29,269 nucleotides of DNA, from the NCBI GenBank assembly GCA_027623195.1, contig JAQBUT010000030.1:1-29269 (forward strand). Direction: 5' to 3'. Each line of letters starts with the position of its first letter. Position 1 is the stretch's first letter. Shown here piece by piece: positions 1,697-22,937 of the stretch. The DNA is from Chloroflexota bacterium. Its GTDB lineage: Bacteria > Chloroflexota > Dehalococcoidia > Lucifugimonadales > JADFKI01. The position numbers and the translations under genes are program-made. The notes under the pieces are model-generated. The model saw only the letters and a program-made list of their open reading frames with translations. It was not told the DNA's origin and did not search any database.

Positions 1697-1975
1697 ATGA
1701 TGAACGTACTTATGGACCTTCCCATAAGCAGGCAAGACATTTCGGAAGAACTTATAGATCAGGAACTTTTTCTCTATGATGAGGGAACGGGCTCGGTCCA
1801 CCAGCTAAACAGCGGCGCTGCTATGATCTGGCTTTTGTGCGATGGCACGAAAGACGTAGCCTCAATTGCGGTCGAAATCGCCAAAAGCTCAAACGTTGAC
1901 GCCGAAAACGTGCTGCAGGATGTCCAGGAGGCGCTTCAGAAGTTCGATTCGCTGGGCCTTCTTGTAAGCAGTTAA
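1697..1975 (+). CDS. PqqD-family protein / stand-alone RiPP recognition element (RRE)
   Basis: 92 aa with 'ELFLYDEGTGSVHQLNSGAAMIWLLCDG..DV..IA..IA....DV...L..F...GLL', the PqqD pattern. SD-like GAGGG upstream. Confidence 0.9.
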   Translation: MMNVLMDLPISRQDISEELIDQELFLYDEGTGSVHQLNSGAAMIWLLCDGTKDVASIAVEIAKSSNVDAENVLQDVQEALQKFDSLGLLVSS

Positions 1976-2122
1976 ATCCCAGGCGTTATTTTGTAATTGG
2001 TCTGGTGGAACGTCCAATTCGGACGCACTGACCTGAATTTTCGAATACCGCCATTCAGGACACCGTCCTCGTGGTTGCAGCTTTCTGAATTGTGACTCAG
2101 GCGCTGTAAACCGAGGAATTAT

Positions 2123-2176
2123 ATGAACGAAAAGGACTCCTTGGATTTGCAAGACATCACCTTAACAAGCCGCTGA
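2123..2176 (+). CDS. 17-aa micro-ORF MNEKDSLDLQDITLTSR, or the true kinase N-terminus interrupted by UGA
   Basis: SD GAGGA at 2113-2117, ATG at 2123, TGA at 2174-2176. Same frame as the kinase ORF at 2228, with no other stop in between. Confidence 0.45.
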   Translation: MNEKDSLDLQDITLTSR

Positions 2177-2227
2177 GGTCAGGAGCTAAACGCTCTGGAT
2201 TGGGCGTCCGACTTCTGCTACGAACTG

Positions 2228-3085
2228 ATGGGCCGCCGCATTCGTATTCGCACCACTTCGGAGAAGACCTCTGAGGGTATCCATAGCCTCTTGCGCTCTT
2301 TTCCTCGCCAGATGCCTGCGGATGGCTCAGCAGAGACCACGTTCTCGTTGGTGATGGGTCCCGCTTCCAACCTGGCTCATGTTCGTCCCTTCCACAGCTT
2401 CTACCGAGACGACTTGAAGGTCGGTCGCACAACGCATGACTGGTACATGTTTCGCCTGTTGGAGTGGCAGACCAACATGTTCCTGGGCGAACACGTGGAT
2501 GATTACCTCCTACTGCACGCGGGTTCGCTTTCGAAAAACGGCAAGGGCCTAATTCTTCCTGCGCCGTCGGAAAGCGGCAAGACGAGCTTGACCATGGCCC
2601 TCACCCGCCGAGGCTTCGGATACATGTCCGATGAGTTTGGCATGGTGGACACCGTGGGTGAGGACATAATGCTTCACCCGTTCCCCAAGCCGTTCAGCAT
2701 CAAAAATAGGACCCTTTTCCCCGATCTTGCTGCCCAGGAACACCTGTGGGTGGGGCCCGGAAAAGACGCGACCCCTGAACAAGACGAAGAACCCGTCTGG
2801 TACATTCATCCAAACGACGCTCGTGAGTCGGCTATAGGTAACTCCGTACCGCTAAGATATGTGCTGTTCCCCATGTATAGCTCTTCCGCTAACCCTTCCC
2901 TGACGCCGGTAAAATCCGGGGATGCCGTTCGTAACCTGATTGAGAACTCAGTCAACTTCCAGCAGGTGGGTGGAGTAGGTCTGGGGGCCATCGTCGAACT
3001 GGTAAAGGGAGCGAAGTGCTACTCCCTTGCCATTAACGACCTGCAACAGACGGCCGACCTGGTAGAAGACCTCCTATCCCTGTAA
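2228..3085 (+). CDS. HPr kinase-related P-loop kinase (HprK-related kinase A-like); start uncertain
   Basis: 'LLLHAGSL..NGKGLILPAPSESGKTSLT' (His plus Walker A), 'GFGYMSDEF', 'HPFPKPFSIK'. Adjacent to a PqqD gene. The frame is open upstream to 2177. Confidence 0.88.
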   Translation: MGRRIRIRTTSEKTSEGIHSLLRSFPRQMPADGSAETTFSLVMGPASNLAHVRPFHSFYRDDLKVGRTTHDWYMFRLLEWQTNMFLGEHVDDYLLLHAGSLSKNGKGLILPAPSESGKTSLTMALTRRGFGYMSDEFGMVDTVGEDIMLHPFPKPFSIKNRTLFPDLAAQEHLWVGPGKDATPEQDEEPVWYIHPNDARESAIGNSVPLRYVLFPMYSSSANPSLTPVKSGDAVRNLIENSVNFQQVGGVGLGAIVELVKGAKCYSLAINDLQQTADLVEDLLSL

Positions 3086-4840: not shown

Positions 4841-7800
4841 GTGAGCTATTTCACCGGCCTGGCCCTGCGTCGCCGCCCGGTCACCATACTGATGATCATT
4901 CTGATAATGGTGATGGGCGTCTTCTCCTACAACAATTTCCAAAGGGAACTGTTCCCGGAGATAGAATTCCCTAACATCACCATTGTTACCATTTACCCTG
5001 ATTCTGATCCCGAAGCAGTAGTGCGCGATGTGACCGAACCCATTGAAGACGCTATCTCTGGCATTTCGGGCATTACGGATATCCAGTCGACCTCCGGAGA
5101 AAACATCTCCATCATACTGGCGACTTTTGAGTTCGGTGAAGACCTGGATGCTGGCGAGAGTGAGATTGAAAACTCCATTAACGGGATAGATTTCCCCAAT
5201 GGAGTTGACGACTCCACTGTCAGCCGCATCAATAGCGATACATTTCCTGCCATCCAGCTCAGTGTGCTCGGCGACACCGACATTCCTGGGCTGCAGCGAA
5301 TTTTGGATGACACCATCATTCCCCGTTTCGAACGAGTTGACGGCGTGTTCAGAGTTGATACGCTGGGCAAGGTGGATGAACAGCTCTTCGTGACTGTTAA
5401 TACGCAAAGGCTGGAAGAGCTCGGGCTGAGCATGGCTCAGGTGGCAAACGCCATCGGGCTCAACAACACCAGCTTCCCTGCCGGAAACATCACCGGCGAG
5501 GGATCCTCTATCACCATCCGGACTACCTACGAGTTCGGTTCCATAGAAGACATTCGCAACTTGACTGTCGGATTCGAGAATACTTCTGGCGGTCCCATAA
5601 TGGGCGTGCAGACCGGCGCACGGCCCATACGGGTTTCGGAAATCGCCGACGTGGAGATAAGCACTGCCAACCCCAGGACAATATCGCGAACCAACGGGAA
5701 GCCCAGTCTCAGCCTTGTAATTCTCAAGGATTCAGACGCCAACACTGTGGACGTCACTGAGGGCGTGCTTGAGGCGGTCCGAATCCTGGAGGAGTCGGGT
5801 GAGCTGCCTGAGCACGTTGAGATGCTGGTACTGTCCAATGACGGCCCTGCGGTAAAGGAATCTCTCAACAGCCTGCTGTTGGATGGAGCGATAGGGTTCC
5901 TGTTTGCCGTTGTCGTTGTCTTTCTATTCCTTATCAACGTGCGCCCGTCGCTCATGAGGGGCGTTGCGCTGGCCGTTCGACCAACGGCCATAATCGGCGT
6001 GTCCATACCACTTAGCGTACTGCTGGGTATTGTTTTTCTGTCCTTCACAGACACCACTCTGAACTTCATGTCTCTGGCAGGACTGGCCATTGCTGTTGGT
6101 CGCGTAGTAGACGACAGCATAGTCGTGCTTGAGAATATGTATCGACACATACAGCGTGGCGAAGACAGACTTGAGGCCGCATATGAGGCCACTAAAGAGG
6201 TCAGCGCCGCCATCGTCGCGTCTACCCTAACCACTGTCGTGGTATTCATCCCCTTGGGATTCATACAGGGCCTGGTCGGAGAGTTCTTCAGCCCATTTGC
6301 TCTGTCGGTAAGCCTTGCGCTGATTGCCTCTACAATTGTTGCTATCACCGCCGTACCGGTACTGGGAGCCATCCTCCTAAGGCGGGACGATCAGGCGATG
6401 TCTGGTGTAGGCCCGACGGATCCCTCAGCCGAGAATTCGCTTATTCTAAGACTTTACATGCCAGCTCTGATCTGGTCGTTGGGGCATAAATTTGCCACCC
6501 TCGCCATTGCAGTGTTCGTAAGCATTGCAGTTAGCGTCCCGCTGATTATGTTCGTCATACCGATTACGTTCTTCCCAGCGGGTTCTCCCGAGTTTCTAAC
6601 CATAGACGTGGAGTTGCCCACAAGCACCTCCGTCGATCGCACATACATAGAGGTTGCCAAGATTGAGCAGGCGCTGGAGGACTTCGAGGCTCTGGGCTTT
6701 GTGGAGACCTACCAGGTGACGCTGGGCGCAACGGCCACCGAATTCGGGCCTAACGCGGCTGGTGGCGGCTTCGACGTAGCTGGCTTCTTTGTCCGGCTTA
6801 ACAAGGACATCGTGCCTAAGGATATCGGCGATCAGATACGCGCGCGAATGCCGGTGGCAGATGACCTGTCTGTCACGGTTCGCGAAATATCTAATGGACC
6901 GCCCGCAGGCGCTCTCGAGATTAACGTCACGGGTCCTAACTTCTCGGATATTTCGGCTGTATCCCGTGACCTTGAGGAGCGTCTTAGTGAAATCGACGGA
7001 ATCATAAATGTGGCTAGCAACGTGTCCGACGCCAAGAGTGAAGTTGTGGTTAAGGTGGACCCGGGGAAGGCCGCAGAGTTTGGGCTGACCACCGTCGCCG
7101 TTGGCCAGCAGGTGAATCAGTTCATTGTCGGCAGGACGATTTCTGAGATTGACCTGGAAGGCGTGACCATCGACATCGTGCTGAGGGGCGACCCAGAAGA
7201 CGTCGACGATATAAACAAGATCAAGAATCTCAACATAGATGGTCCGATGGGAAGTACCAAGCTGGGTGCTATAGCTAGAATCGCTATCGAGGATGGGCCG
7301 GTTACTATATCCCGATTCGACAACGAGAGGTCTGCCAGTATCTCCGGAAACATTGTTGCAGAGGATACTCAGGCCGTTGGGCAACAGGTAGCCTCTGTGA
7401 TCGCAACCATGCCAATACCTCCAGGCGTTCAGGTGAAGTCCGGAGGTATATTCGAGCAGATAAACGAGGGCTTCGCAGACGTGGGGCAGGCCATGGAGAT
7501 AGGAATAGTGCTGGTTTACCTGGTAATGGTCGCCAGCCTGGGTTCCGTGCGAAATCCCTTCATCATTGTGCTTAGTCTGCCGTTGGCGGTGGTCGGAGCA
7601 CTCCTTGCTCTGGCTATTACTGGACGCACCCTTAGCCTTTCGGCCCTGATGGGATTCCTTTTGCTGATAGGCGTGGTCGTCACTAACGCAATTGTGCTTC
7701 TGACTTTTGTTGAGCAGCTAAGGGAAAGGGGCTACGACGTGTATGACGCCCTGTTGGAAGGTGGGCGCATCCGGTTGCGGCCCATACTGATGACCGCATT

Positions 7801-8053
7801 CACCACTACGTTTGCCCTGTTCCCTCTGGCGGCGTTCTCGACATCGGATAGCGGCATCATCGGCGCCGAGTTAGCCACAGTAGTAATTGGAGGACTGGTC
7901 AGCTCCACCTTCCTGACGCTGATCGTGGTCCCAGTGGTATACACGCTGATGAACGTCAGCATTCCAGGAATGTTCGAAAGGCTAGGGGAGAGGATGCGCG
8001 GTGAATCGTCCTACAGGCCGCCGGTGTCGGGATACCAGCCGGGGAACGATTAG
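4841..8053 (+). CDS. RND efflux transporter permease (AcrB/SwrC-like)
   Basis: 1070 aa. 'RRPVT', 'LFPEIEFP', 'AVGRVVDDSIVVLEN', 'GVVVTNAIVL', 'RLRPILMT'. SD AAGGAG before the GTG start. Confidence 0.96.
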   Translation: MSYFTGLALRRRPVTILMIILIMVMGVFSYNNFQRELFPEIEFPNITIVTIYPDSDPEAVVRDVTEPIEDAISGISGITDIQSTSGENISIILATFEFGEDLDAGESEIENSINGIDFPNGVDDSTVSRINSDTFPAIQLSVLGDTDIPGLQRILDDTIIPRFERVDGVFRVDTLGKVDEQLFVTVNTQRLEELGLSMAQVANAIGLNNTSFPAGNITGEGSSITIRTTYEFGSIEDIRNLTVGFENTSGGPIMGVQTGARPIRVSEIADVEISTANPRTISRTNGKPSLSLVILKDSDANTVDVTEGVLEAVRILEESGELPEHVEMLVLSNDGPAVKESLNSLLLDGAIGFLFAVVVVFLFLINVRPSLMRGVALAVRPTAIIGVSIPLSVLLGIVFLSFTDTTLNFMSLAGLAIAVGRVVDDSIVVLENMYRHIQRGEDRLEAAYEATKEVSAAIVASTLTTVVVFIPLGFIQGLVGEFFSPFALSVSLALIASTIVAITAVPVLGAILLRRDDQAMSGVGPTDPSAENSLILRLYMPALIWSLGHKFATLAIAVFVSIAVSVPLIMFVIPITFFPAGSPEFLTIDVELPTSTSVDRTYIEVAKIEQALEDFEALGFVETYQVTLGATATEFGPNAAGGGFDVAGFFVRLNKDIVPKDIGDQIRARMPVADDLSVTVREISNGPPAGALEINVTGPNFSDISAVSRDLEERLSEIDGIINVASNVSDAKSEVVVKVDPGKAAEFGLTTVAVGQQVNQFIVGRTISEIDLEGVTIDIVLRGDPEDVDDINKIKNLNIDGPMGSTKLGAIARIAIEDGPVTISRFDNERSASISGNIVAEDTQAVGQQVASVIATMPIPPGVQVKSGGIFEQINEGFADVGQAMEIGIVLVYLVMVASLGSVRNPFIIVLSLPLAVVGALLALAITGRTLSLSALMGFLLLIGVVVTNAIVLLTFVEQLRERGYDVYDALLEGGRIRLRPILMTAFTTTFALFPLAAFSTSDSGIIGAELATVVIGGLVSSTFLTLIVVPVVYTLMNVSIPGMFERLGERMRGESSYRPPVSGYQPGND

Positions 8054-8137: not shown

Positions 8138-9682
8138 TTAACCCGCCATGCCTGTCAGGTCCCCAACGACCTTGATGCGGATTCGCGTGGCATTGCTGGG
8201 TAAGTAAGATAGTGGGACCTCTTCCAGTTCGACCACTTGCAGCGTTTCGCGGTCGGCTCCGGCTGCAACTGCCTTGTCTTCCGCCTCACGCTGGGCCGCT
8301 TCCAAGGCCTCTAATCTGCCGTACTCCGCCAGCGAATAGACCTTCTCTACCTGCCCGCCGACCTGTGCCATGGCAGCGCCTATGGCGTTGGCCACCTCGC
8401 CGTACTGAGGGCGTATTACCTCGGATGCGCCAGCCAATGTGTCGCCCACAAGAATACTGCCGCCGCCCACGAGAATCACCGGCACGTCTGCTGCACTCAG
8501 CTTGAGTTTGTCTATTAGTTCTGCCAGACGAACGTCAATTAACGACATGCCATCTGCTGCTAGCCTCGCGTTGATGGCCTGGTCTGGACTGCTGTGCCCA
8601 ACATTGGCGCGTCCAGCGTAGACTGCCAGGTCCGTTGCCGTGCTGGTATTGCCTCCGAAGACCAACGCCTGCTCCATTAGGCGATATCCCACGCTGTCAG
8701 GCCCTACGCTTAGAGGGGATTCGCGGATGATACTCCCTCCGCCCAACGCTATGGAGAGCACGTCCGGCATGCGAAAATTCGTCCGCACGCCTGCAATCTC
8801 TATTGCTACAGACGCCTCCCTGGGAAAGCCGTTGACCAGCGCACCGCCGTCGGTGGTGGTCCCTCCGATGTCCAGCACAATGCCTTTGGTTACGCCGGAG
8901 AGAAACGCTGCCCCCCGCATGCTATTGGTGGGGCCGGAGGCTATGGTGAATACGGGATAGCGCGAAGCAAACTCGGCCTCCATCAGTGTGCCGTCATTCT
9001 GGCTCAGGTAGAAGGGCGCGTTCAGCCCCAGCGACCGAATGGCCTCAGTCAGGGACGTAATCGTTCGCGCCGCAATCTCGCTTAGGCTGGCATTCAATGC
9101 TGTGGCGTTTTCTCTTTCCAGAATCCCAACCCTGCCGATTTCGTGGGACAGGGTGACTGAAAGCTCCGGCGCTTGCTGGAGGATAATCGAGGCGACCTGG
9201 TCTTCGTGGGAGGTCTCCACTGGCGAGAAGACTCCGCACACCGCGACGGCCCTTACTCCTTTGCCGACCATGTCCTTCACCGCCTCGCGGACCTCTCGCT
9301 CTTCCATCGGGGAGATCTCCTGGCCATCGAATTCGTGGCCGCCGCTTAGCATATACGAGTGACCTCCGATAGCCTCCCTTAAAGCGTCGGGCCAGTCTAC
9401 CAGCGGTGGAAGAAGAGTGGTGGCAGGCCGGCACATACGGATCACAGCCGTTGGCGCCAGAGATTTGCGTTCCAGAAGCGCGTTCGTGAAATGGGTCGTG
9501 CCCAGCATTACAGCCTGTACGTCGGCGTCGGGCGGCGCCTCCGTTAGAACGCTCTTCAGGGCGGCGATTATCCCAGACGACACGTCGGCAGTGGTTGGAC
9601 GCTTGGCCTGAGCAACAAGCCTGGAGCCGTCCATGAGCACGGCGTCGGTGTTAGTGCCGCCAACATCAAGTCCTATCCTCAT
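8138..9682 (-). CDS. Hydantoinase/oxoprolinase family protein (A-subunit type)
   Basis: 'RIGLDVGGTNTDAV', 'GTTHFTNA', 'SGPTNSMRGAAFL', 'DIGGTTTD', 'ANAIGAA'. Confidence 0.93.
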   Translation of the reverse strand: MRIGLDVGGTNTDAVLMDGSRLVAQAKRPTTADVSSGIIAALKSVLTEAPPDADVQAVMLGTTHFTNALLERKSLAPTAVIRMCRPATTLLPPLVDWPDALREAIGGHSYMLSGGHEFDGQEISPMEEREVREAVKDMVGKGVRAVAVCGVFSPVETSHEDQVASIILQQAPELSVTLSHEIGRVGILERENATALNASLSEIAARTITSLTEAIRSLGLNAPFYLSQNDGTLMEAEFASRYPVFTIASGPTNSMRGAAFLSGVTKGIVLDIGGTTTDGGALVNGFPREASVAIEIAGVRTNFRMPDVLSIALGGGSIIRESPLSVGPDSVGYRLMEQALVFGGNTSTATDLAVYAGRANVGHSSPDQAINARLAADGMSLIDVRLAELIDKLKLSAADVPVILVGGGSILVGDTLAGASEVIRPQYGEVANAIGAAMAQVGGQVEKVYSLAEYGRLEALEAAQREAEDKAVAAGADRETLQVVELEEVPLSYLPSNATRIRIKVVGDLTGMAG

Positions 9683-9745
9683 TCTTTTTGGTAATCCTTC
9701 AATTAAGCTTTTGGCGGTTGTTGCCGAGGGTGGCAGATGGTCTGT

Positions 9746-10816
9746 TCACAGTGCAAGCGGGGTGTAGTCGAGGTCGTACCCGAATGCTCTGGGGCCGACG
9801 ACTCGCAACCCTTCGGGGGATGTCCAGAGACTGGGTGCCGGGAAGCCCAACACCGTCACTCGGAAGCCGTACCTCAGCAACTCCGTTGTGATTGGCTCGC
9901 CTCTGTCGCGGTCTACGATGCAGATGAGGTCCGGCACCATGCATACGGTGTCGCCGTCCAACCGCGCCACCAGGTTTTCGTTCTGAAACTCGATATCCAT
10001 TCGAGAGTCGGACCATTCGCCCGAGCCCTCTATGGCAACTCGACCCCTGGCGAATCCCGCAGTGGTCCGGCGTTCCAGGTCCACTATCTTGCCGGAGAAG
10101 AGCACTCGACCTGGACAGGTAGCCAGAATAGCCTCCACCGAATCACTGTTTTCTCTTCGCGAAGCCCTTACCGCCTCGCCCAGTGACTTGGCGAGAGAGA
10201 GGCTGTTCAGCACGGCCGTATTGCGTATCTGCTCTGCCGTCATCGGGGCGACGGCGTAGCAGGCAACGCAGCCCATCTGTACCGTCACGGCCCTGGCCAT
10301 GCGCTCAACCCATTTTGAACTGGCTGCCTCGGGTATGATGGCGGTGTTGCCGCGCTCGTCGCAGACGGCCATGGGGGTGCACGGCACGCCGTAAACGAAG
10401 AAGGTCTTCATCTGGAACTCGGGGAACGCTCTGCCCATGCCATCTGCGTCGACTATGGGCAGGCCCGCAAAGGCGGCAGGAATAATAGGTTCCAACGAGT
10501 TGCTGCCGCCTATCTCGTTGGAAATAAGCGCCGTCGCCTTCTTGCCGGTGTATCGCTCGATGGCCCTAAACGCCTCGTAGGACTGTAGACCGCGTATCTT
10601 CTCGATACCCACCGTGGGCGCGCCGATTCCGCCGACGCATATGACCAGAGCATCGTCGTCCAGTTCATCAGGCGATAGCACATCAACCGGCCCGTGCTGA
10701 CGTATGGCCTCCCGCGCGCGCAACTGCCCGATGTAAGGGTTGCCTCCTCCACCGGTGCCGAGAATGCCCGCTCCGATGGCTATCGATTCCAGATCGTCCT
10801 CAGTTACCTGCCACAT
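9746..10816 (-). CDS. DUF917 family protein
   Basis: 'GAGILGTGGGG', 'EIGGSNS', 'DADGMGRAFPE', 'FQNENL', 'VPDLI', 'TELLRYG'. Start placed at Met43 of the tracked ORF, which follows a GAGGGGAG SD and avoids overlap with comF. Confidence 0.9.
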   Translation of the reverse strand: MWQVTEDDLESIAIGAGILGTGGGGNPYIGQLRAREAIRQHGPVDVLSPDELDDDALVICVGGIGAPTVGIEKIRGLQSYEAFRAIERYTGKKATALISNEIGGSNSLEPIIPAAFAGLPIVDADGMGRAFPEFQMKTFFVYGVPCTPMAVCDERGNTAIIPEAASSKWVERMARAVTVQMGCVACYAVAPMTAEQIRNTAVLNSLSLAKSLGEAVRASRRENSDSVEAILATCPGRVLFSGKIVDLERRTTAGFARGRVAIEGSGEWSDSRMDIEFQNENLVARLDGDTVCMVPDLICIVDRDRGEPITTELLRYGFRVTVLGFPAPSLWTSPEGLRVVGPRAFGYDLDYTPLAL

Positions 10817-10829
10817 TGGCTTGCTCCCC

Positions 10830-11552
10830 TCATGCGCCCTGCCTCGCGAAGGCCAGTCCCCACACGGACGCCGCTCCCGAAACCTTGAGCTCCTCTGCGC
10901 AGGCGGACATTGTGTTGCCCGTGGTGATAACGTCGTCCACAAGCATCACCCGCTTGCCTTCCACGTCCGTCGCGCAGTCGAAAGCTCTCGCGATGTTGTT
11001 CCGTCGGGCCTCCGAAGAATCCATCTCGACCTGAGGCGCGGTGTTTCTTGCCCTGATTAGGGAAGTATCGTTAACCGGGATTCCTGTCAGCTTGCTTAGT
11101 TCTATGCAAAGAAGCCCGGACTGGCTGTATCCTCGTTGCCGTTCCCGCTTGGGGTGGAGGGGCACCGGTATCAGCGCGTCGACAGGGTACGGATTCCGTT
11201 CCAGGTATTGGGCCAAGAGGCGGGCCATGGGTGGCGCGGCAACCCTAACGCCTCGATATTTCAAGTCAAGGACCATCTGTTGTACGGGGCCGTCGTAGTG
11301 GTAAGGAGCCCGTGCGCGGTCGAATCGCGGCGAGTTCTCGAAGCACCATTTGCAGAGCTGGGGTACGTCGGGATTGGCGCACAGGTAGCAGTAGGGACGC
11401 TGCAACAGAGGCAGTTCGGCCTCGCAGCCTTCGCAAATGTACTGGCCCTCTTTAGCGCATACCACGCAATTTACAGGCAAAGCCAGGTCCAGAAATCTGG
11501 AGCCTGCCATCGCGACGGCGCGGCCAATATTACTTCGTGTCAGGTGTATCAC
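10830..11552 (-). CDS. comF: ComF family protein (double zinc ribbon plus phosphoribosyltransferase domain)
   Basis: Four CxxC pairs, 'IPVPLHPKRERQRGYSQ', and the PRT motif 'VMLVDDVITTGNT'. Confidence 0.9.
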   Translation of the reverse strand: MIHLTRSNIGRAVAMAGSRFLDLALPVNCVVCAKEGQYICEGCEAELPLLQRPYCYLCANPDVPQLCKWCFENSPRFDRARAPYHYDGPVQQMVLDLKYRGVRVAAPPMARLLAQYLERNPYPVDALIPVPLHPKRERQRGYSQSGLLCIELSKLTGIPVNDTSLIRARNTAPQVEMDSSEARRNNIARAFDCATDVEGKRVMLVDDVITTGNTMSACAEELKVSGAASVWGLAFARQGA

Positions 11553-15191: not shown

Positions 15192-16244
15192 ATGACTCAA
15201 AAGAATACTTTCGGCCTCTTTGCTTCAATGGTTTTTGTTTTGGTCCTGGCGGTCGCTTGCGGCCCAAGCGAATCAGAAATTGAAACTCTTGTTGCAGGGG
15301 AAGTCCAGCGCCAGGTCTCGGCCATAAACCTACCCGTAGGTCCTTCTGGACCTCAAGGAGTGGCCGGCACCCAAGGTCTAAAGGGCGACAGGGGAGAAGT
15401 AGGACCTGCGGGCCCTAAGGGAGAACGGGGTGCGCCAGGGTTGGTTGCCGGGATGGATGCTGAGGCGGGATCTGTTGCTACTCCTACAGCAATTCCTATA
15501 CCCGCAGCCACTGCAACGCCAACCCCACTTATTGAAGTCTTCCCAGATGGGGTTGCCATACTTGAGGAAACCGCGCTCCAACTACTTGTAAAAACGAATC
15601 TTTCAGACCCAAGTATCACCTGGTCTAGCAGCAACCCTGACGTTGTGGAAGTCTCGCAGAATGGCTTGGCCTTTGGAAAGTCGGTTGGAACCGTACAAGT
15701 CACCGCTGCATTCGGTGAGCTAAGCGACACCGCCGAGGTCAAAGTTACCCATGGGCAGGTTGCGACGGTTCAGATCGGCTATTTCGGAGGTGCAGATTTC
15801 CAGAAATTTCTTAGCGATGAGGCTGGTCACGCACTCACGGACCGTGAAGTGACGTGGTTCAGCAGCGATCCGGATGTTGCAGCATTGGATAAGCTAACGG
15901 GCGGCCTGACCATAAAAAAGGCAGGCAACGCGGTCATTACCGCTATCTCAGAAGATGTGGCTGACAGTGTAAATATTAACGTCAAACCCATCTTAGGATC
16001 GGCGCTAGATAAAATTGAACTGATCCATATTGCCGAAAGGGACAAAACAACCCTGCAATTCTATACCAATGATGAACAGTCCGATGGAGGGAATACCCTG
16101 GATGATATCCCATCCGGTGTTCCTGTATGGCTACTTGTGGCTGAGGACGTCGAGCTTGAGATTAATGGGGTTCAATTCAATCTCACTTGCGTCGAAGAGG
16201 GAACTCCTGAAGAGGATTGCTGGAATCTGGTCGCCTTCCCGTAG
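15192..16244 (+). CDS. Surface lipoprotein with collagen-like repeat and two Ig-like (Big_2) domains
   Basis: Lipobox LAVAC (Cys23). Twelve Gly-X-Y triplets (aa 50-85). Pro/Thr linker. Two 'TWxSSxPDV' Big_2 motifs. Confidence 0.85.
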   Translation: MTQKNTFGLFASMVFVLVLAVACGPSESEIETLVAGEVQRQVSAINLPVGPSGPQGVAGTQGLKGDRGEVGPAGPKGERGAPGLVAGMDAEAGSVATPTAIPIPAATATPTPLIEVFPDGVAILEETALQLLVKTNLSDPSITWSSSNPDVVEVSQNGLAFGKSVGTVQVTAAFGELSDTAEVKVTHGQVATVQIGYFGGADFQKFLSDEAGHALTDREVTWFSSDPDVAALDKLTGGLTIKKAGNAVITAISEDVADSVNINVKPILGSALDKIELIHIAERDKTTLQFYTNDEQSDGGNTLDDIPSGVPVWLLVAEDVELEINGVQFNLTCVEEGTPEEDCWNLVAFP

Positions 16245-16447: not shown

Positions 16448-18484
16448 TTAGTCCTCCCCGTCGGCGTCCGGCGCGTGCACAAACTGGCCGTGACGTCGCC
16501 ACAGGTCCACGCCATGCAGGCGCAGCGTGACCACCTCGCCCGGCAGGACTGCGTTGGGTAACGGCGCCCTTATCCTGAACGGGTAACTCACCAGGTCCAG
16601 CATAGCCGTGCGATTGGCCTGATTTTCCAACACCGTGGCCTCAAATAGGTCTGAAAACTCACCGTCTTGAATGCCCAATTTCAGGTACTTCAGGAACCAG
16701 TACTTTTTTCGGTCTTCTTCTATGCGAGCCAGGCCCCGCACCTGAACGTCGGCCCGCTGCGCCACGGAAGAAATCTCATCCGTCGTATACAGAGGCAGAC
16801 CGGTGCTAAGGTACTGGCTAATCTGCCGCTGCATAACCATGTCTGGATATCTCCGCAATGGCGAAGTGACCTGGATGTAAGCGGGAACTCCCAGGCCTCC
16901 ATGTGGAGCCGGCGACGTGCTTACCGCGGCGGGAGTGAGCCGACGAATAATGGCGTACCAGCGCAAAGGCCCATCCCCGAGGTCCACTCCCGGCGGCAGG
17001 TCGGACCCCAAATCCGTAAGGTCCGCCGGCGTTTGAGACCGGTACGCAGCAGGAATTTCCCTGTCCCTACAGAATTCGGCCATAAGGGAGTTGCACAGAA
17101 TCATGAACTCCGTGACCATCTGTCGCGACGGCGTGGACCTGGGTATGACCCGGACGTCAGGTCTTCCGTTTTCGTCCACCGATATGAGCATCTCGGAACG
17201 TTCCAGGTTCAATGCGCCGGCCTGCTCTCGCCGGGCGCGTATGGCGGAGGCGATCTTTTCCAGCGTGGCCAATGTGGTGTGCCAGTTATGGCCTGCATCC
17301 GATATCGCCCCGTCGGCCTCTTCGTATGAGAGGGCGGCATCGCTGCGCACGACGGACGGCGTAACGTCCCAACTGAGCATCTGTCCAGCTTCGTCGAACC
17401 TGATGAGCAGGCTCAAGGCTATTCTGGTCTGGCCTTCCTGCAGGCTGCCCTTAGCGGTGGAGACCTCTGGGGGCAGCATTGGCACCTTGCGCTCCGGTAG
17501 GTATAAGGTGGCCATCCGACGGTCCGCTTCGATGTCCAACTCGCTGCCGGGCAGAACCAGCGTTCCGGCATCGGCAATATGTATTCCCACCTTAAAGATG
17601 CCCGGCTCGTCCAATCCCACCGACAGGGCGTCGTCCCTGTCCTCAGTGCCGGAGTCGTCAATGGTCACAGTCGGCAAATCAGTGAGGTCCACGCGGTTGC
17701 TCTGAGACAAGCCAGCCGCGTCATTTGCATTCGCGGCCTCCGCGATAGCCCCTTCTGAAAATTCCTCCGGAATGTTCTCTCGTTCCAATTCCAGAGGTTC
17801 GTCCGGTGAAAACACACCGGCATCCACCAGCATGTCGAAGGCCAGCCGTTGTATGTCGCCGGTGGCCCGTTGCACCCCGTCCAGGAGGGTTTTCACGGCC
17901 GGTCCGCGGGTGTAGTTGTCGCCATGTATCGCGAATCCTCTAACGTCTCGCAGCAGAATTTGCTGATGGGCCGTCATATCCTGCGGAAGCTGGCCCTCCG
18001 CGAGGGCGTTTACCAGGGCGGCCGCATCGATGGCGTTGTTGGCTTCTTTTTCTCGGCGGGTTCGGATCTCCTCTACCGCGGATTCGGACCTGGGGCTGTA
18101 AACACCCTTTTCGTTTACAAAGTAAAGCGTCTCCCTATCCAGTTGCAGCAGCAGTGCCACCCGCTGTGCCGCTGCGGCATCATTCCCCCAGTTCAGCTCC
18201 GCGAGTTCGTCCAGGGACATGGCGGTGCCTTCGTCTCGCACAACCTCCCATATCTCTGCCACGTCGATTGAATCTGTGAGGGCCTCGGTCTCTGCCTTGA
18301 ATCGCTCCACATCTGTATCATCAGAAGCGATCACGCCTGTGGCCAGTACGATGCGTTCGGCAGGGATACGAGCTTCCTTCTTCTGTCGCAGTAACAGCCT
18401 CACCCTGGACGCTTCCACCTCCAGCACCTTGGCTATCGTAATTTCGCCGCTTAGACGTGCGGCAACCAGTTCTCCGGATTTCAT
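16448..18484 (-). CDS. RNB-domain exoribonuclease (RNase II/R family)
   Basis: Catalytic 'TIDDSGTEDRDDALS', 'HIAD', 'ATLYLP', 'EFMILCN', 'TSPLRRYPD'. Confidence 0.93.
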   Translation of the reverse strand: MKSGELVAARLSGEITIAKVLEVEASRVRLLLRQKKEARIPAERIVLATGVIASDDTDVERFKAETEALTDSIDVAEIWEVVRDEGTAMSLDELAELNWGNDAAAAQRVALLLQLDRETLYFVNEKGVYSPRSESAVEEIRTRREKEANNAIDAAALVNALAEGQLPQDMTAHQQILLRDVRGFAIHGDNYTRGPAVKTLLDGVQRATGDIQRLAFDMLVDAGVFSPDEPLELERENIPEEFSEGAIAEAANANDAAGLSQSNRVDLTDLPTVTIDDSGTEDRDDALSVGLDEPGIFKVGIHIADAGTLVLPGSELDIEADRRMATLYLPERKVPMLPPEVSTAKGSLQEGQTRIALSLLIRFDEAGQMLSWDVTPSVVRSDAALSYEEADGAISDAGHNWHTTLATLEKIASAIRARREQAGALNLERSEMLISVDENGRPDVRVIPRSTPSRQMVTEFMILCNSLMAEFCRDREIPAAYRSQTPADLTDLGSDLPPGVDLGDGPLRWYAIIRRLTPAAVSTSPAPHGGLGVPAYIQVTSPLRRYPDMVMQRQISQYLSTGLPLYTTDEISSVAQRADVQVRGLARIEEDRKKYWFLKYLKLGIQDGEFSDLFEATVLENQANRTAMLDLVSYPFRIRAPLPNAVLPGEVVTLRLHGVDLWRRHGQFVHAPDADGED

Positions 18485-18687: not shown

Positions 18688-19857
18688 ATGAGCATGACGA
18701 TTACCTTTGTCGTCAGCATGATGGCCATATTGCTGGTTACATTTACGATTGGTCAGGACGTGAAGAACGCGTATGTGACCATTTCCAGTACCTGGCTGGG
18801 TCAAGAAAACAGGTGGGAGTCCCAGTCGAATACCAGGATTGCGGGCCCCATCGGCGCCTCTGTGGACGAAACCACTACAGTTCAGCTTACGCTGGTCAAC
18901 GAAGGGGACGAGGTCGTTGGTGATTTCGAACATTGGAACCTGATTATCGAGTCTCAGCGTCCGGGCAGTCCCGCCATCAGCTACTTAACGTACACAGAAA
19001 ACGGTGTCCCTGGCCCCAATGAGTGGACGGTGAGCGGCATTTACCGCGATGCAGATACTCTGGCCGCAGAGGTCGTGGACCCGGGCATAATGAATTCCGG
19101 TGAGGAGATGATAGTCGTCGCCAACCCTTCACCGGCTATCGTCGCAGGCTTTTACGACAGGGCCGTTTTCGTTACGCCAAACGGAGTCTCATTAAAGGTT
19201 ATCTTCAAAGTCAGCGCGGTGCTGTACGTCGCGGACCGGGATGATGGGCTTGTCTACATTTACATGGATGACGGGACCTATAGCGGCGTGGATTTCCTGG
19301 ACTCTAACAATGATGATGCCAGGGGCATTACCACCGACAACACCAATTTCTGGACGGTGGATGTTCAGGACTTGCAGGCCAACAGGTACCCCAGCACGTT
19401 CAATGTGGCTACACCCTGGACCTTGGACTTGGCCAATGCCACCAGCACCGGTATCACGACAGACGGGACTAACATATGGACTGTGGACCCGGAAGACGAT
19501 GTGGTTTACCAGTACGATATGGTCGGCACGTCCGTGTCCAATTTTACGTTGGACCCGACTAATGCAGGTGCGACGGGCATAACCACCGACGGCAGCAGCA
19601 TCTGGACTGTCGACGATCAGGACAACGCCGTATACAAGTATTCCATGGCCGGAGTTCTAGATTCCAGCTTCCCTCTTACGTCCGGCAACGCGGACCCTAC
19701 GGGCATAACCACCAACGGGACCCAAATATGGGTGGTTGATCATGCCGATCTCAAGATCTACTCATATATTACAGACGGCACATACCTGACAACGCTAGAC
19801 ATATCTCTTACCGCTCCCAATGCAGACCCGGAAGGGATAACGGTGCGTTCCAAGTAG
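18688..19857 (+). CDS. Archaellum ArlF/ArlG (FlaF/FlaG)-like protein fused to an NHL-like beta-propeller
   Basis: N-terminal TM helix. 'LTLVNEG', 'W.LII', 'DPGIMNSGE', 'VTPNGV' follow the FlaF/G pattern. Then ~42-aa repeats 'GITTDG..IW.VD..D..VY.Y'. SD GGAG. Confidence 0.72.
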   Translation: MSMTITFVVSMMAILLVTFTIGQDVKNAYVTISSTWLGQENRWESQSNTRIAGPIGASVDETTTVQLTLVNEGDEVVGDFEHWNLIIESQRPGSPAISYLTYTENGVPGPNEWTVSGIYRDADTLAAEVVDPGIMNSGEEMIVVANPSPAIVAGFYDRAVFVTPNGVSLKVIFKVSAVLYVADRDDGLVYIYMDDGTYSGVDFLDSNNDDARGITTDNTNFWTVDVQDLQANRYPSTFNVATPWTLDLANATSTGITTDGTNIWTVDPEDDVVYQYDMVGTSVSNFTLDPTNAGATGITTDGSSIWTVDDQDNAVYKYSMAGVLDSSFPLTSGNADPTGITTNGTQIWVVDHADLKIYSYITDGTYLTTLDISLTAPNADPEGITVRSK

Positions 19858-19878: not shown

Positions 19879-20961
19879 CTAACTCAGGTCCGATAGCCTG
19901 GGCATGACTTCTTTGGCCAGGCGCGTCATCGAGTTCACCCACTTTTCCTTGGGCTGCCACTCGTGCCCCATCGCCAGCAGCACACCGAAGCCGCCGACCT
20001 CGCCGTACAGGTCCCTAATCTGTTGCTCCACGTCATCGGGACCGCCAACGATCCATACGTTGTCCATGAGATACTCGACGGTCACCTCTGAATCCGGCAT
20101 GTCCGGATCGAGTTTCATCAGGTCCAGTACGCCCGTGGCCTTAAGCAGTGGGATGAAGTAGTTGTCGAAATCGCGCCTGAATACGCCGTTCAGCATGTCG
20201 TCGCGAGCCTGGGCAGTCGTCTCGCCGACGTAAATCTCCCTGGCGATGCGCCACAAGGAGCGGTCTGCGGTACGACCGGCCCGCTGAGCACCTTCCTCGA
20301 CTGCATCCCAGTGGGTCTTGACCTGCTTTGAGGGCACCAGGTTAATGCTCATGGGAATCCAGCCACGCTCTCCCGCCAATCGCAGCGTTTCCGAGCGCGG
20401 GGAGACGCCCGCTACTGCGATGGGTGGGTGCGGCATCTGATAAGGCTTCATGTGAAAGCCCATGCCAATAACCTCGTCCGGCTCCGGTATGGTGAAATCC
20501 CAGTACTTATGCTTGTAATTGCCCGGTTTGGGGTCGTCCCAAATCTGAAGAACTACCTCCACAGCGTCCCTGGCCATGCTGCGGTGCTCGCCGGTCTCCG
20601 CATTGAAGCCGAACACCTTGAAGTCGCCGACGTAGCCGCCGGAGCCTACGCCCCAGTTGAAACGCCCGTGGGCCAGATGGTCTAGCTGAGCGATGCGATG
20701 CGCGATCATGAACGGGTTGTGGTTCGGCATGCAGGTAACGCCGGTGCCGAGCACGATGTTCTTCGTCATGCCCAGCGCCTTGGCGATGAAAAGATCAGGC
20801 GCAGGGATGTTCTCCCAGACCGACGTGAAGTGCTCTCCGATCCAGGCCTCTTTGTAGCCCAACTCATCCAGCGTAACGAGCTGCTCTAGGTCGGCGTCCA
20901 TCGTCTCGGTGATGTTGGAGCCGGGCGGGTGCAACGGCATCGTAAAGTAGCCTACTTCCAT
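19879..20961 (-). CDS. Luciferase-like (LLM) flavin-dependent monooxygenase
   Basis: 'GYFTMPLHPP', 'LGYKEAWIGEH', 'LDHLAHGRFNWGVGSG', 'PHPPIAVA', 'GGFGVLL'. SD GGAGG. Confidence 0.93.
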   Translation of the reverse strand: MEVGYFTMPLHPPGSNITETMDADLEQLVTLDELGYKEAWIGEHFTSVWENIPAPDLFIAKALGMTKNIVLGTGVTCMPNHNPFMIAHRIAQLDHLAHGRFNWGVGSGGYVGDFKVFGFNAETGEHRSMARDAVEVVLQIWDDPKPGNYKHKYWDFTIPEPDEVIGMGFHMKPYQMPHPPIAVAGVSPRSETLRLAGERGWIPMSINLVPSKQVKTHWDAVEEGAQRAGRTADRSLWRIAREIYVGETTAQARDDMLNGVFRRDFDNYFIPLLKATGVLDLMKLDPDMPDSEVTVEYLMDNVWIVGGPDDVEQQIRDLYGEVGGFGVLLAMGHEWQPKEKWVNSMTRLAKEVMPRLSDLS

Positions 20962-21132
20962 ATCGGCCTCCCTGTTTTTTCGAATAAATCATAGAGATTC
21001 GACCGCAGTATAAGTGAGGTGATGCTTCACCACAAGAACATTCCAACCCTCGGGTTGTGTTGGGATTGGGGTGGTGCTAGTCTTCATAAAATCTCAAGTG
21101 GAATCTAAAGCAGTGAAAAGGGCGTAAACGGG

Positions 21133-22281
21133 ATGGATGAATCAAAGCAGCGAGCGCTGACAATCCTGGAAAACCTGGCAGGACAGGCCGCCACATCCTT
21201 CTTTGAGGATAGGCCAACGCGGTTCATCGTGGAAACGTTGGCGAAGCTGGACGGCGTGGAAAGCAGGCGCGATCAGTTCGGCAACGTCATCGCGCACTAC
21301 CGTAGGTTGTCTCCCGATGCCGCGCCACGCCCGCCTATAGCTTTCGTGGCGCACATGGACCACCCTGGCTTCGAGATTTATTCGAATGGCGCAGATGAGG
21401 GTCTGTATACGGCCAGGGCGATGGGCGGCGTTCCGGTGGCCTCGCTGAATAAGCCCGTGCCTGTGCTGGTACTTACGCCTGACGGCAAGCGTTTGCCTGC
21501 AACGCTTGAGCCTATGGACCAGTCGTCAGCTAAGGACGGCGACAGGCTTGTGGGCGTTAGGTTGGAGTCCGACGCCGAGTTTCCCATGCCAGCTGCTGTA
21601 ATCTTCGATCTGTCGGACTTCAGTCTGGACGGCGATATCATTCGCATGCGAGCGGCCGACGACTTGGCCGGATGCGCGAGCATTCTGGCTGCCTTGGGGC
21701 GACTCGCGGCTGATAAGGCAGAGACAGACTTCTACGCCGTGTTCACCAGGGCAGAGGAGGGCGGCCTCTACGGCGCGCGCCTGATGGCGGAGGCTGGGAC
21801 GTTACCCAAAGAAACGTTAGTGGTTTCTGTGGAGACCAGCTCAATTATCCCCGGTGTTACTCAAGGCGAGGGGCCGGTTGTGCGCACAGGCGACCGCGTC
21901 TACACCTTCGATGCCGACGCTGAGCAGGTCTTTCATGTTGCGAGAGCCTCGATACTTAAACGCATCCCCGAATTCAAATCTCAACGTCAGCTTATGAGCG
22001 CGGGCGGTTGCGAGGCCACGGCCTTCGCGGTGTTTGGATATAAGGTGACAGGGCTGGCCTACCCACTGGGGAACTGGCACAACGCCACAACGTCGATACC
22101 CGACCCGGATGGGGGCGTGGACTCGGAGTACATCAGCCTGTCGGACTACCTGGGAGGCGTAGAGCTAATCGCCGAAGCCGCCATCAGCGTGGCGCAGCGG
22201 AACGACTCGGCCACCCGCCAGCGCATCCGCGATATACCTGAGGACGTTCGCAGGCGCATGCTGGGCACGGCGGAAGGCTAG
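21133..22281 (+). CDS. M20/M28/M42-like dinuclear metallopeptidase
   Basis: 'DQFGNVIA', 'AHMDH', 'ADDLAG', 'AEEGG', and a C-terminal His (GNWH). Confidence 0.85.
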   Translation: MDESKQRALTILENLAGQAATSFFEDRPTRFIVETLAKLDGVESRRDQFGNVIAHYRRLSPDAAPRPPIAFVAHMDHPGFEIYSNGADEGLYTARAMGGVPVASLNKPVPVLVLTPDGKRLPATLEPMDQSSAKDGDRLVGVRLESDAEFPMPAAVIFDLSDFSLDGDIIRMRAADDLAGCASILAALGRLAADKAETDFYAVFTRAEEGGLYGARLMAEAGTLPKETLVVSVETSSIIPGVTQGEGPVVRTGDRVYTFDADAEQVFHVARASILKRIPEFKSQRQLMSAGGCEATAFAVFGYKVTGLAYPLGNWHNATTSIPDPDGGVDSEYISLSDYLGGVELIAEAAISVAQRNDSATRQRIRDIPEDVRRRMLGTAEG

Positions 22282-22937
22282 ACAGCCTCGCTGCGGTCCC
22301 AGCCCTCCTGCACCCAGTAGCCGACTTCTGGCACGCCTACCGCAGTAGGCAGTCCCTGCGCTCGCTTCAGCCGCTGGATGTTATACAGGTGGGTTATCTC
22401 CTCGAAGTACATGTGTCGGAAGGTCGCCTCCAGCGTCATCTCGCCCTGGCTAGGGTCTACGTCGGGATTCATGCCGGTGGGATGTGCCTTGATCATGATG
22501 TCCCACTGGGGCGACAGGTTGTAGCGCAGCGTGTGGGCCTTCAGGAAACCGACGTTTCTCTCCGCCAGCACCCGCTGTGTAAGGTCGATAGCCTCCTTCA
22601 GAATGTCCAACAGCACTGGAAGGTCCCAGTATCGATCTTTGGGAAGAGCCCGGTCGAAGTCGGCGTTGGTCTTATGCTCGGCGTCGGCGATGCCATGCCC
22701 CCCATCGGGGAAAAGCACGTTCCCCCATCGCACCATGAGCCAGCGATAGAGTAGGGAGGCCATGTGGCTAAGCTGCCGGCGCATGCTCCACTCGGCCCAG
22801 CCCCACTGGTCAGAACACCAGTCCAACTGCTCATCCGTTAGGCCCTGAAGCTCCCGGGCTATGAGTTCGTGAAGCGCGGCGTACTCCGGAAAAAGCTCGG
22901 ATGCGGGACTGTTGTCCGATATGTTGTTTTGAGTCAT
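22278..22937 (-). CDS. DinB/YfiT-like family protein
   Basis: 'GLTDEQLDW', 'WSMRRQLSHMA', 'EEITHLYNIQRLKRAQG'. Confidence 0.8.
   Translation of the reverse strand: MTQNNISDNSPASELFPEYAALHELIARELQGLTDEQLDWCSDQWGWAEWSMRRQLSHMASLLYRWLMVRWGNVLFPDGGHGIADAEHKTNADFDRALPKDRYWDLPVLLDILKEAIDLTQRVLAERNVGFLKAHTLRYNLSPQWDIMIKAHPTGMNPDVDPSQGEMTLEATFRHMYFEEITHLYNIQRLKRAQGLPTAVGVPEVGYWVQEGWDRSEAV

Follow-up and report, generated by a model that had tools for sequence, protein, structure and literature searches.

What does an archaellum stator protein do when its gene lies away from the archaellum operon and carries a second domain? This question is raised by a 389-aa protein encoded in the 29,269-nt stretch of Chloroflexota DNA that was analysed here as a whole (the window). 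An earlier note had described it as an orphan ArlF/ArlG-like protein fused to a beta-propeller, and profile comparison, structural comparison, repeat analysis, and a scan of the window agree on an archaellum-stator paralog joined to an acidic five-bladed propeller outside an arl operon. Passages of PMC4425475, PMC8978795, and PMC8667602 describe ArlF as capping the ArlG filament and binding the S-layer. A portion of PMC10444878 reports that SAR202 bacteria have no peptidoglycan, are covered by an S-layer-like coat, and carry scattered copies of flaB. The clade of paralogs that holds the 389-aa protein is named ArlF2 here, and the features of its locus are as follows.

18688..19857, + strand: arlF2-propeller gene, 389 aa; 59/109 homologues two-domain; dN/dS 0.135 against the same-genus orthologue
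18691..18831, + strand: long N-terminal helix, aa 2-48, including the signal-anchor/transmembrane segment aa 3-21, without a class III peptidase site
18832..19212, + strand: ArlF (FlaF)-type archaellin-fold beta-sandwich, aa 49-175; profile and structure match to FlaF 4p94
19213..19854, + strand: acidic five-bladed beta-propeller, aa 176-389; full repeats from nt 19309, 19435, 19561, and 19687
19828..19845, + strand: terminal strand, aa 381-386, predicted from the strands of the AlphaFold2 model to close the split blade
16448..18484, - strand: RNase II (RNB) gene, divergent, conserved upstream neighbour of arlF2; locus marker outside the system
19879..22937, no single strand assigned: LLM oxidoreductase, M42 peptidase, and DinB-family genes, conserved downstream neighbours of arlF2; locus markers

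The alignment-based AlphaFold2 model of the 389-aa protein (52 rows; mean pLDDT 88, pTM 0.75) comprised a helix over residues 2-48, a beta-sandwich up to residue 174, and 20 more strands. Transmembrane-level hydrophobicity was confined to residues 3-21 (19-residue Kyte-Doolittle mean, 2.27; maximum past residue 40, 1.33). Such a hydrophobic window was present in 43 of the 49 full-length two-domain homologues, and a class III cleavage motif in none (0/49), in agreement with the transmembrane segment lacking a prepilin cleavage site that had been noticed before. The pattern 'N.G...W...PG..N.GE...TPNG' was located at N71-x-G73, W83, W113, P132-G..N136-x-G138-E139, and T163-P-N-G166. The five repeats and the 'PEGIT' closing strand of the earlier description correspond to four full 42-aa units, starting at residues 208, 250, 292, and 334 (mean pairwise identity 0.42, compared with at most 0.16 in 10,000 shuffles), and a fifth blade that is split in the model between strands 178-203 and the C-terminal strand 381-386. 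This domain contains 32 D/E and 7 K/R, the family medians being 31 and 10, respectively.

The gene is under purifying selection, its dN/dS of 0.135 being close to the 0.141 of the adjacent RNase II gene, and in a survey of domain architecture the two domains occurred together in 59 of 109 homologues. The nearest titled records are from Chloroflexota, Dehalococcoidia, and SAR202. As a single sequence, the protein (P0001) yielded no relevant family in Pfam and NCBIfam scans, and a protein Atlas search returned one uninformative match (0.79). A promoter and terminator scan remained at chance level, and none of the RNA datasets among the matches listed carried the gene. In a class-wide sample of 401 genomes, the match in the source genome (G000) was the only one among those listed that covered both domains. 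As previously claimed, arlB, arlH, arlI, and arlJ were not found in the window, both a Pfam scan of its 28 ORFs and tblastn with a relative's arl proteins being empty.

Other genes of the window were recorded as well. Positions 15192-16244, about 2.4 kb from arlF2, encode a probable surface protein of 350 aa that combines two Big_2 Ig domains with a collagen-like segment. A PqqD-family protein beside an HprK-related kinase A (TIGR04352, below cut-off) at 1697-3085 may form a peptide-modification pair, a hydantoinase/oxoprolinase adjoins an S-methyl-thiohydantoin desulfurase-like gene at 8138-10942, and an RND permease with no adaptor gene seen alongside is encoded at 4841-8053.

A 78-row profile of the N-terminal domain matched Sulfolobus acidocaldarius FlaF (4p94) at E 1.9e-12 and FlaG at E 2.8e-5. 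In a wide structural search, the modelled domain was aligned to FlaF 4p94 over 112 of 116 residues (Z 15.4, rmsd 1.8), and FlaG was absent among the best 50 rows; with Foldseek, the matches listed for the whole model were all propellers. In relatives' operons, ordered arlB-arlCDE-arlG-arlF-arlH-arlI-arlJ, the match of the same profile within the arlG-arlF pair was far stronger for the second gene than for the first. The N-terminal domain is of the ArlF type and not of the ArlG type. The ArlF half of the earlier 'ArlF/ArlG-like' assignment was upheld, whereas the ArlG half was rejected, as the profile favours FlaF and ArlG forms a separate long branch in the tree (support 100/100). A generic Ig/CARDB fold, raised beforehand as the competing outcome, was also rejected because FlaF was matched by both profile and structure. 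Archaellin (ArlB) identity was rejected because there is no class III site; the source genome's own ArlB, by contrast, matches TIGR02537.

The 389-aa protein matches neither NF052590 nor PF22201, which were matched by 10 of 52 members (best E 1.4e-4) and 21 of 52 members (best E 2.2e-5), respectively. The canonical operon ArlFs of two relatives (G024 and G026) also fall under the NCBIfam ArlF cut-off, indicating that this cut-off is not discriminating here. Interface residues were taken from PMC4425475 and mapped onto the fusions through the FlaF profile alignment. On this inferred mapping, the equivalents of I86, F99, L101, and L103 were hydrophobic in 57, 35, 56, and 53 of 57 main-clade fusions, and those of V149, V151, and I159 in 13, 44, and 2; among 33 operon ArlFs, the V149 equivalent was hydrophobic in 18 and the I159 equivalent in 1. 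The partly kept hydrophobic face is compatible with ArlG binding, and also with self-dimerisation or with packing on the propeller.

In an IQ-TREE phylogeny of the ArlF domain (64 rows hand-picked from about 230; outgroup ArlG), the protein fell within a 23-row clade with support 99/99, and the operon ArlFs of the same genomes grouped elsewhere; ArlF2 was separate from operon ArlF in the 230-row tree too (SH 100). The usual ArlF2 site, divergent from the RNase II gene and upstream of the LLM, M42, and DinB genes, was found in at least six families of the order. An arlG-neighbouring operon context for ArlF2 was absent in the window and in loci L004-L012, and the gene adjacent to arlG is the canonical arlF, not ArlF2. 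ArlF2 adjoins arlI-arlJ in two loci only (L158 and L260). In L158, the full fusion and arlI-arlJ share a strand, with the fusion 913 bp upstream, and the gene order in G517 is arlG-arlF-arlH-arlF2-arlI-arlJ, with an ArlF2 of 177 aa. ArlF2 is an old second ArlF clade that is syntenically fixed. 'Orphan' is thus an apt word for the position of the gene, but not for a lone gene, as the genome has arl genes elsewhere.

ArlF2 was counted in 13 genomes (G000, G024, G026, G435, G477, G517, G541, G625, G640, G702, G774, G781, and G783), which are kin and not independent trials. G661 (65% complete, unplaced in the final tree, without arlJ) was excluded, as was G428, whose locus L005 holds a probable ArlF2 orthologue reduced to the propeller half at a contig edge, and in which arlB, arlG, arlI, and arlJ were not found. 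The propeller is optional: ArlF2 carries it in 7 of the 13 genomes and has the 177-aa form in the other 6, including the motor-bearing G435, G517, and G625. Both forms occur inside one genus at 81% identity. Propeller-bearing ArlFs also occupy three further places in the ArlF-domain tree, and a single clade uniting every propeller-bearing ArlF domain was rejected by an AU test (p 0.003), a result that is no more than suggestive because the groups were named after viewing a tree. The tree of the propeller itself was poorly resolved.

The same propeller was detected on N-methyl pilins (P0067, L015, and L018) and in large proteins of 1000-4000 aa in the class, and surface proteins of type IV filaments in these bacteria carry it as a general module. 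This generality, together with its absence from ArlF2 in 6 of 13 genomes, weakens the earlier suggestion of a propeller that fits the motor to the envelope of a bacterium. Other tails were found on ArlF proteins: a cadherin-like domain pair on about 20 of them (P0152 group and L176:2025-3158, the latter being the one arlF that its complete operon has), and unnamed tails on some further ones.

Several proteins and genomes deserve separate mention. P0059 is an archaellin (Pfam archaellin E 4e-22) whose filament helix is followed by an insertion of the same propeller, and L013:8708-11191 encodes an 827-aa protein, called an archaellin by inspection of its N-terminus, with the propeller behind repeated Ig-like segments. 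The third ArlF of G517, outside the operon (L267:6669-7979), has a Kelch propeller as its fusion partner. G435, G685, G663, G722, and G758 each have two or three ArlJ-like platform genes, which suggests several archaeal-type filament systems.

The distribution of ArlF2 was compared with that of the archaellum genes. Among the 13 ArlF2 genomes, arlB was present in all and arlJ in 7; arlJ had no match in G000, G541, G640, G702, G774, and G781 (86-93% complete), and arlI was also unmatched in four of these six, all from one family. In G541, arlI is present only as a 3' piece. Canonical arlF is retained in genomes with the motor. In the source genome's family, the N-domain and ArlI matched the identical 3 of 27 genomes, and any ArlF-type match was obtained in 33 of 401 genomes of an order-wide sample. 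In the archaellum-free genus g2, the ArlF2 N-domain was found in 0 of 22 genomes; in genus g241, ArlI and arlB were both absent in 30 of 30 genomes and an ArlF match was obtained in 0 of 19 sampled. G615, which lacks arlB, arlI, and arlJ, has kept arlF2 only as a truncated copy, mid-contig. Two gene arrangements were also seen: the archaellum of G024 is split into arlB-arlCDE-arlH-arlI and arlB-arlCDE-arlG-arlF-arlJ (L076 and L077), so that arlB and arlCDE are present separately in both, and one of the two arlB genes of G640 is split over two frames (L142:7103-8082), being either a pseudogene or a sequencing error.

Among three genomes without detectable arlI or arlJ, the dN/dS of ArlF2 was 0.15-0.18. 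Selection without a detected motor would be expected if ArlF2 acts independently of the motor, or if the motor was lost recently on several occasions, as in the source genome. A search for deletion scars in G640, G702, G774, and G781 was unsuccessful because the orthologues of the flanking kinase and regulator are missing there too.

The source genome (87% complete) retains an intact-looking 363-aa arlB on contig C32 and a 3' arlI piece on C31 (C31:4344-5051, L064), cut just past Walker A. The search for an arl cluster was therefore successful in part: these two genes were recovered, and arlG, arlJ, arlCDE, and canonical arlF were not found in the assembly. The lone archaellin (C32:7250-8341, L002) contains an insertion, a domain with weak similarity to CBM_11 (E 0.0014). 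Relative to G024, an 8.3-kb deletion has removed the 5' part of arlI, arlH, arlCDE, and an arlB. A contig from run X1, which may be the source, bridges this deletion, whereas contigs of runs X3 and X4, from a different study, break at the same point and then run into Walker A sequence, so the deletion looks strain-level. On this evidence, loss of the motor can be recent. Sequences flanking the arlG-arlF-arlJ locus of G024 have their counterparts at the ends of contigs C17 and C55, implying that this locus may sit in an assembly gap; the statement that the genome has no archaellum was rejected as unproven for this reason and because of the completeness of 87%.

We propose that ArlF2 may be an accessory archaellum stator cap with an interchangeable surface-binding module, a reading to which we assign a probability of about 0.5. 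Its helix would anchor the protein in the membrane with both domains outside, and the ArlF domain would bind ArlG or ArlF via the conserved hydrophobic sheet face, so that the stator would gain ArlF2 as an additional cap. Through its propeller, ArlF2 would also hold on non-enzymatically to the protein or glycan coat of the cell or to a surface outside it; the propeller would be an optional and exchangeable module rather than the core function. This reading is supported by the ArlF identity, the 99/99 clade, the two loci with motor genes, arlB in 13/13 genomes, the distribution shared with ArlI in the source genome's family, the lack of ArlF matches in g241 and the truncated copy in G615, the partly kept FlaF face, the possibly recent loss of the motor, and the tails on operon ArlF. 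Counted against it are the six arlJ-less and the six propeller-less genomes, the co-presence of canonical arlF, the poorly kept V149 and I159 positions, two tandem ArlF2 fusions in G640, the dN/dS of 0.15-0.18 without arlI or arlJ, and the G428 orthologue without arl genes. ArlF2-propeller likely works like an ArlF, yet is not the canonical operon ArlF; arlF duplication within the operon has already been published.

ArlF2 may instead have long been independent of the motor, as a membrane-anchored adhesin or envelope component whose ArlF domain is a stalk or dimeriser and whose propeller is a ligand-binding head, which we consider doubtful but worth serious attention. This explanation arises from the six of 13 assemblies that lack arlJ while selection on ArlF2 continues, and it keeps the adhesion role suggested in the earlier note in contention. 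It would also account for the fixed site outside the operon in at least six families, the tandem duplication in G640 (93% complete, 4 contigs) with no motor match, and the occurrence of the propeller in very large proteins of the class. However, every ArlF2 genome has an arlB companion, the gene is missing from the archaellum-free genera and truncated in G615, and two loci still place it beside arlI-arlJ. Moreover, because motor deletions can be strain-level, the low dN/dS of ArlF2 may date from an earlier, motor-bearing time.

The tighter co-occurrence with arlB (13/13) than with arlJ (7/13) could also mean that the partners of ArlF2 are archaellins and not ArlG, and that it is an accessory at the base or in nucleation, helping decorated archaellins to be displayed. 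The propeller is shared with archaellins and pilins (P0059, L013, L015, L018, and P0067), and a passage of PMC8667602 gives interface residues common to ArlB and ArlG. This alternative seems unlikely to us: ArlF2 has no class III site and so cannot be processed into a filament, in the four motor-less genomes of family f102 no further type IV filament ATPase exceeds the Pfam cut-off, and scattered arlB copies would survive a single operon deletion anyway.

The best fold matches of the propeller were bacterial glutaminyl cyclases (3mbr, Z 21.3, and another, Z 20.2) and YjiK (3qqz, Z 19.3), and among 52 members sub-threshold Pfam matches to Vgb_lyase were found in 29 and to phytase-like domains in 30. 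These matches raise the idea of an extracellular enzyme (glutaminyl cyclase-, lyase-, or phytase-like) on a co-opted ArlF stalk. Identity to the best folds is only 10-12%, however, and the conserved residues recur from blade to blade, leaving no unique catalytic position. Just before the Gly of each blade lies a channel-facing position, which we take to be the site of the glutaminyl cyclase glutamates; it is variable (at E382, Q in 29/52 and E in 6/52) and holds no conserved acidic residue among the 52 members. As the propeller is also freely lost and swapped, an enzyme is very improbable, and we infer a non-enzymatic surface-binding module. That arlF2 in the source strain is a leftover awaiting decay after the 8.3-kb deletion is hardly credible, since its frame is intact, its dN/dS matches that of RNase II, and the idea concerns one strain and not the family.

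No description of an ArlF-propeller fusion was found in the literature searched, mostly non-subscription papers in their main texts, consistent with the earlier note, which knew of none. 'Propeller', 'fusion', and 'fused' have 0 occurrences in the main text of PMC12488501, 'propeller' is absent from the accessible part of PMC13319060, and 'propeller' and 'fused' are absent from that of PMC13705601. Regarding anchoring, the accessible part of PMC13319060 states that how the stator is held in bacteria without an archaeal S-layer is open for most Chloroflexota; the sole published proposal in it, PilO-LysM, concerns genes adjoining archaellum genes in 3 of 244 genomes. The ArlF2 clade with its modular C-terminal domains and the cadherin-tailed operon ArlFs are named, expressible candidates for this step. 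The results also show that operon-bound searches overlook a stator paralog, and that one species can include strains with the motor deleted alongside others that apparently retain it. Tentatively, Chloroflexota might have anchored the borrowed motor by duplicating ArlF and adding exchangeable binding domains (five-bladed, Kelch, cadherin-like, and others). ArlF2-propeller would then be a second cap that grips a SAR202-type surface layer, and where the motor has been deleted it would continue to act as a stand-alone adhesin, a possible case of stator-to-adhesin exaptation in progress.

Like S. acidocaldarius ArlF (FlaF; 4P94, 5TUG), ArlF2 has a membrane helix without a class III site, an archaellin-fold sandwich, and a hydrophobic face at I86. 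It differs in the added 214-aa propeller and in being a second copy beside canonical arlF, mostly outside the operon; it lies under the NCBIfam ArlF cut-off, as do the canonical Chloroflexota ArlFs tested. The propeller shares the five-bladed fold with glutaminyl cyclases (3MBR, 3NOK) and E. coli YjiK (3QQZ) at Z 19-21 and rmsd 2.1-2.5, but its blades are highly repetitive. The arlF duplications reported for Chloroflexota in section 7 of PMC12488501, where all genes stay in one locus, likewise place a second arlF in archaellum-bearing genomes, whereas ArlF2 is a distinct clade that has moved to a fixed housekeeping site and carries optional tails. The PilO-LysM/PilN scaffold of Litorilinea aerophila, as given in part of PMC13319060, is also a candidate archaellum anchor in a bacterial envelope. 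That model relies on borrowed type IV pilus parts and peptidoglycan, whereas the ArlF2 model would extend the stator subunit itself, in a class reported in a portion of PMC10444878 to have no peptidoglycan.
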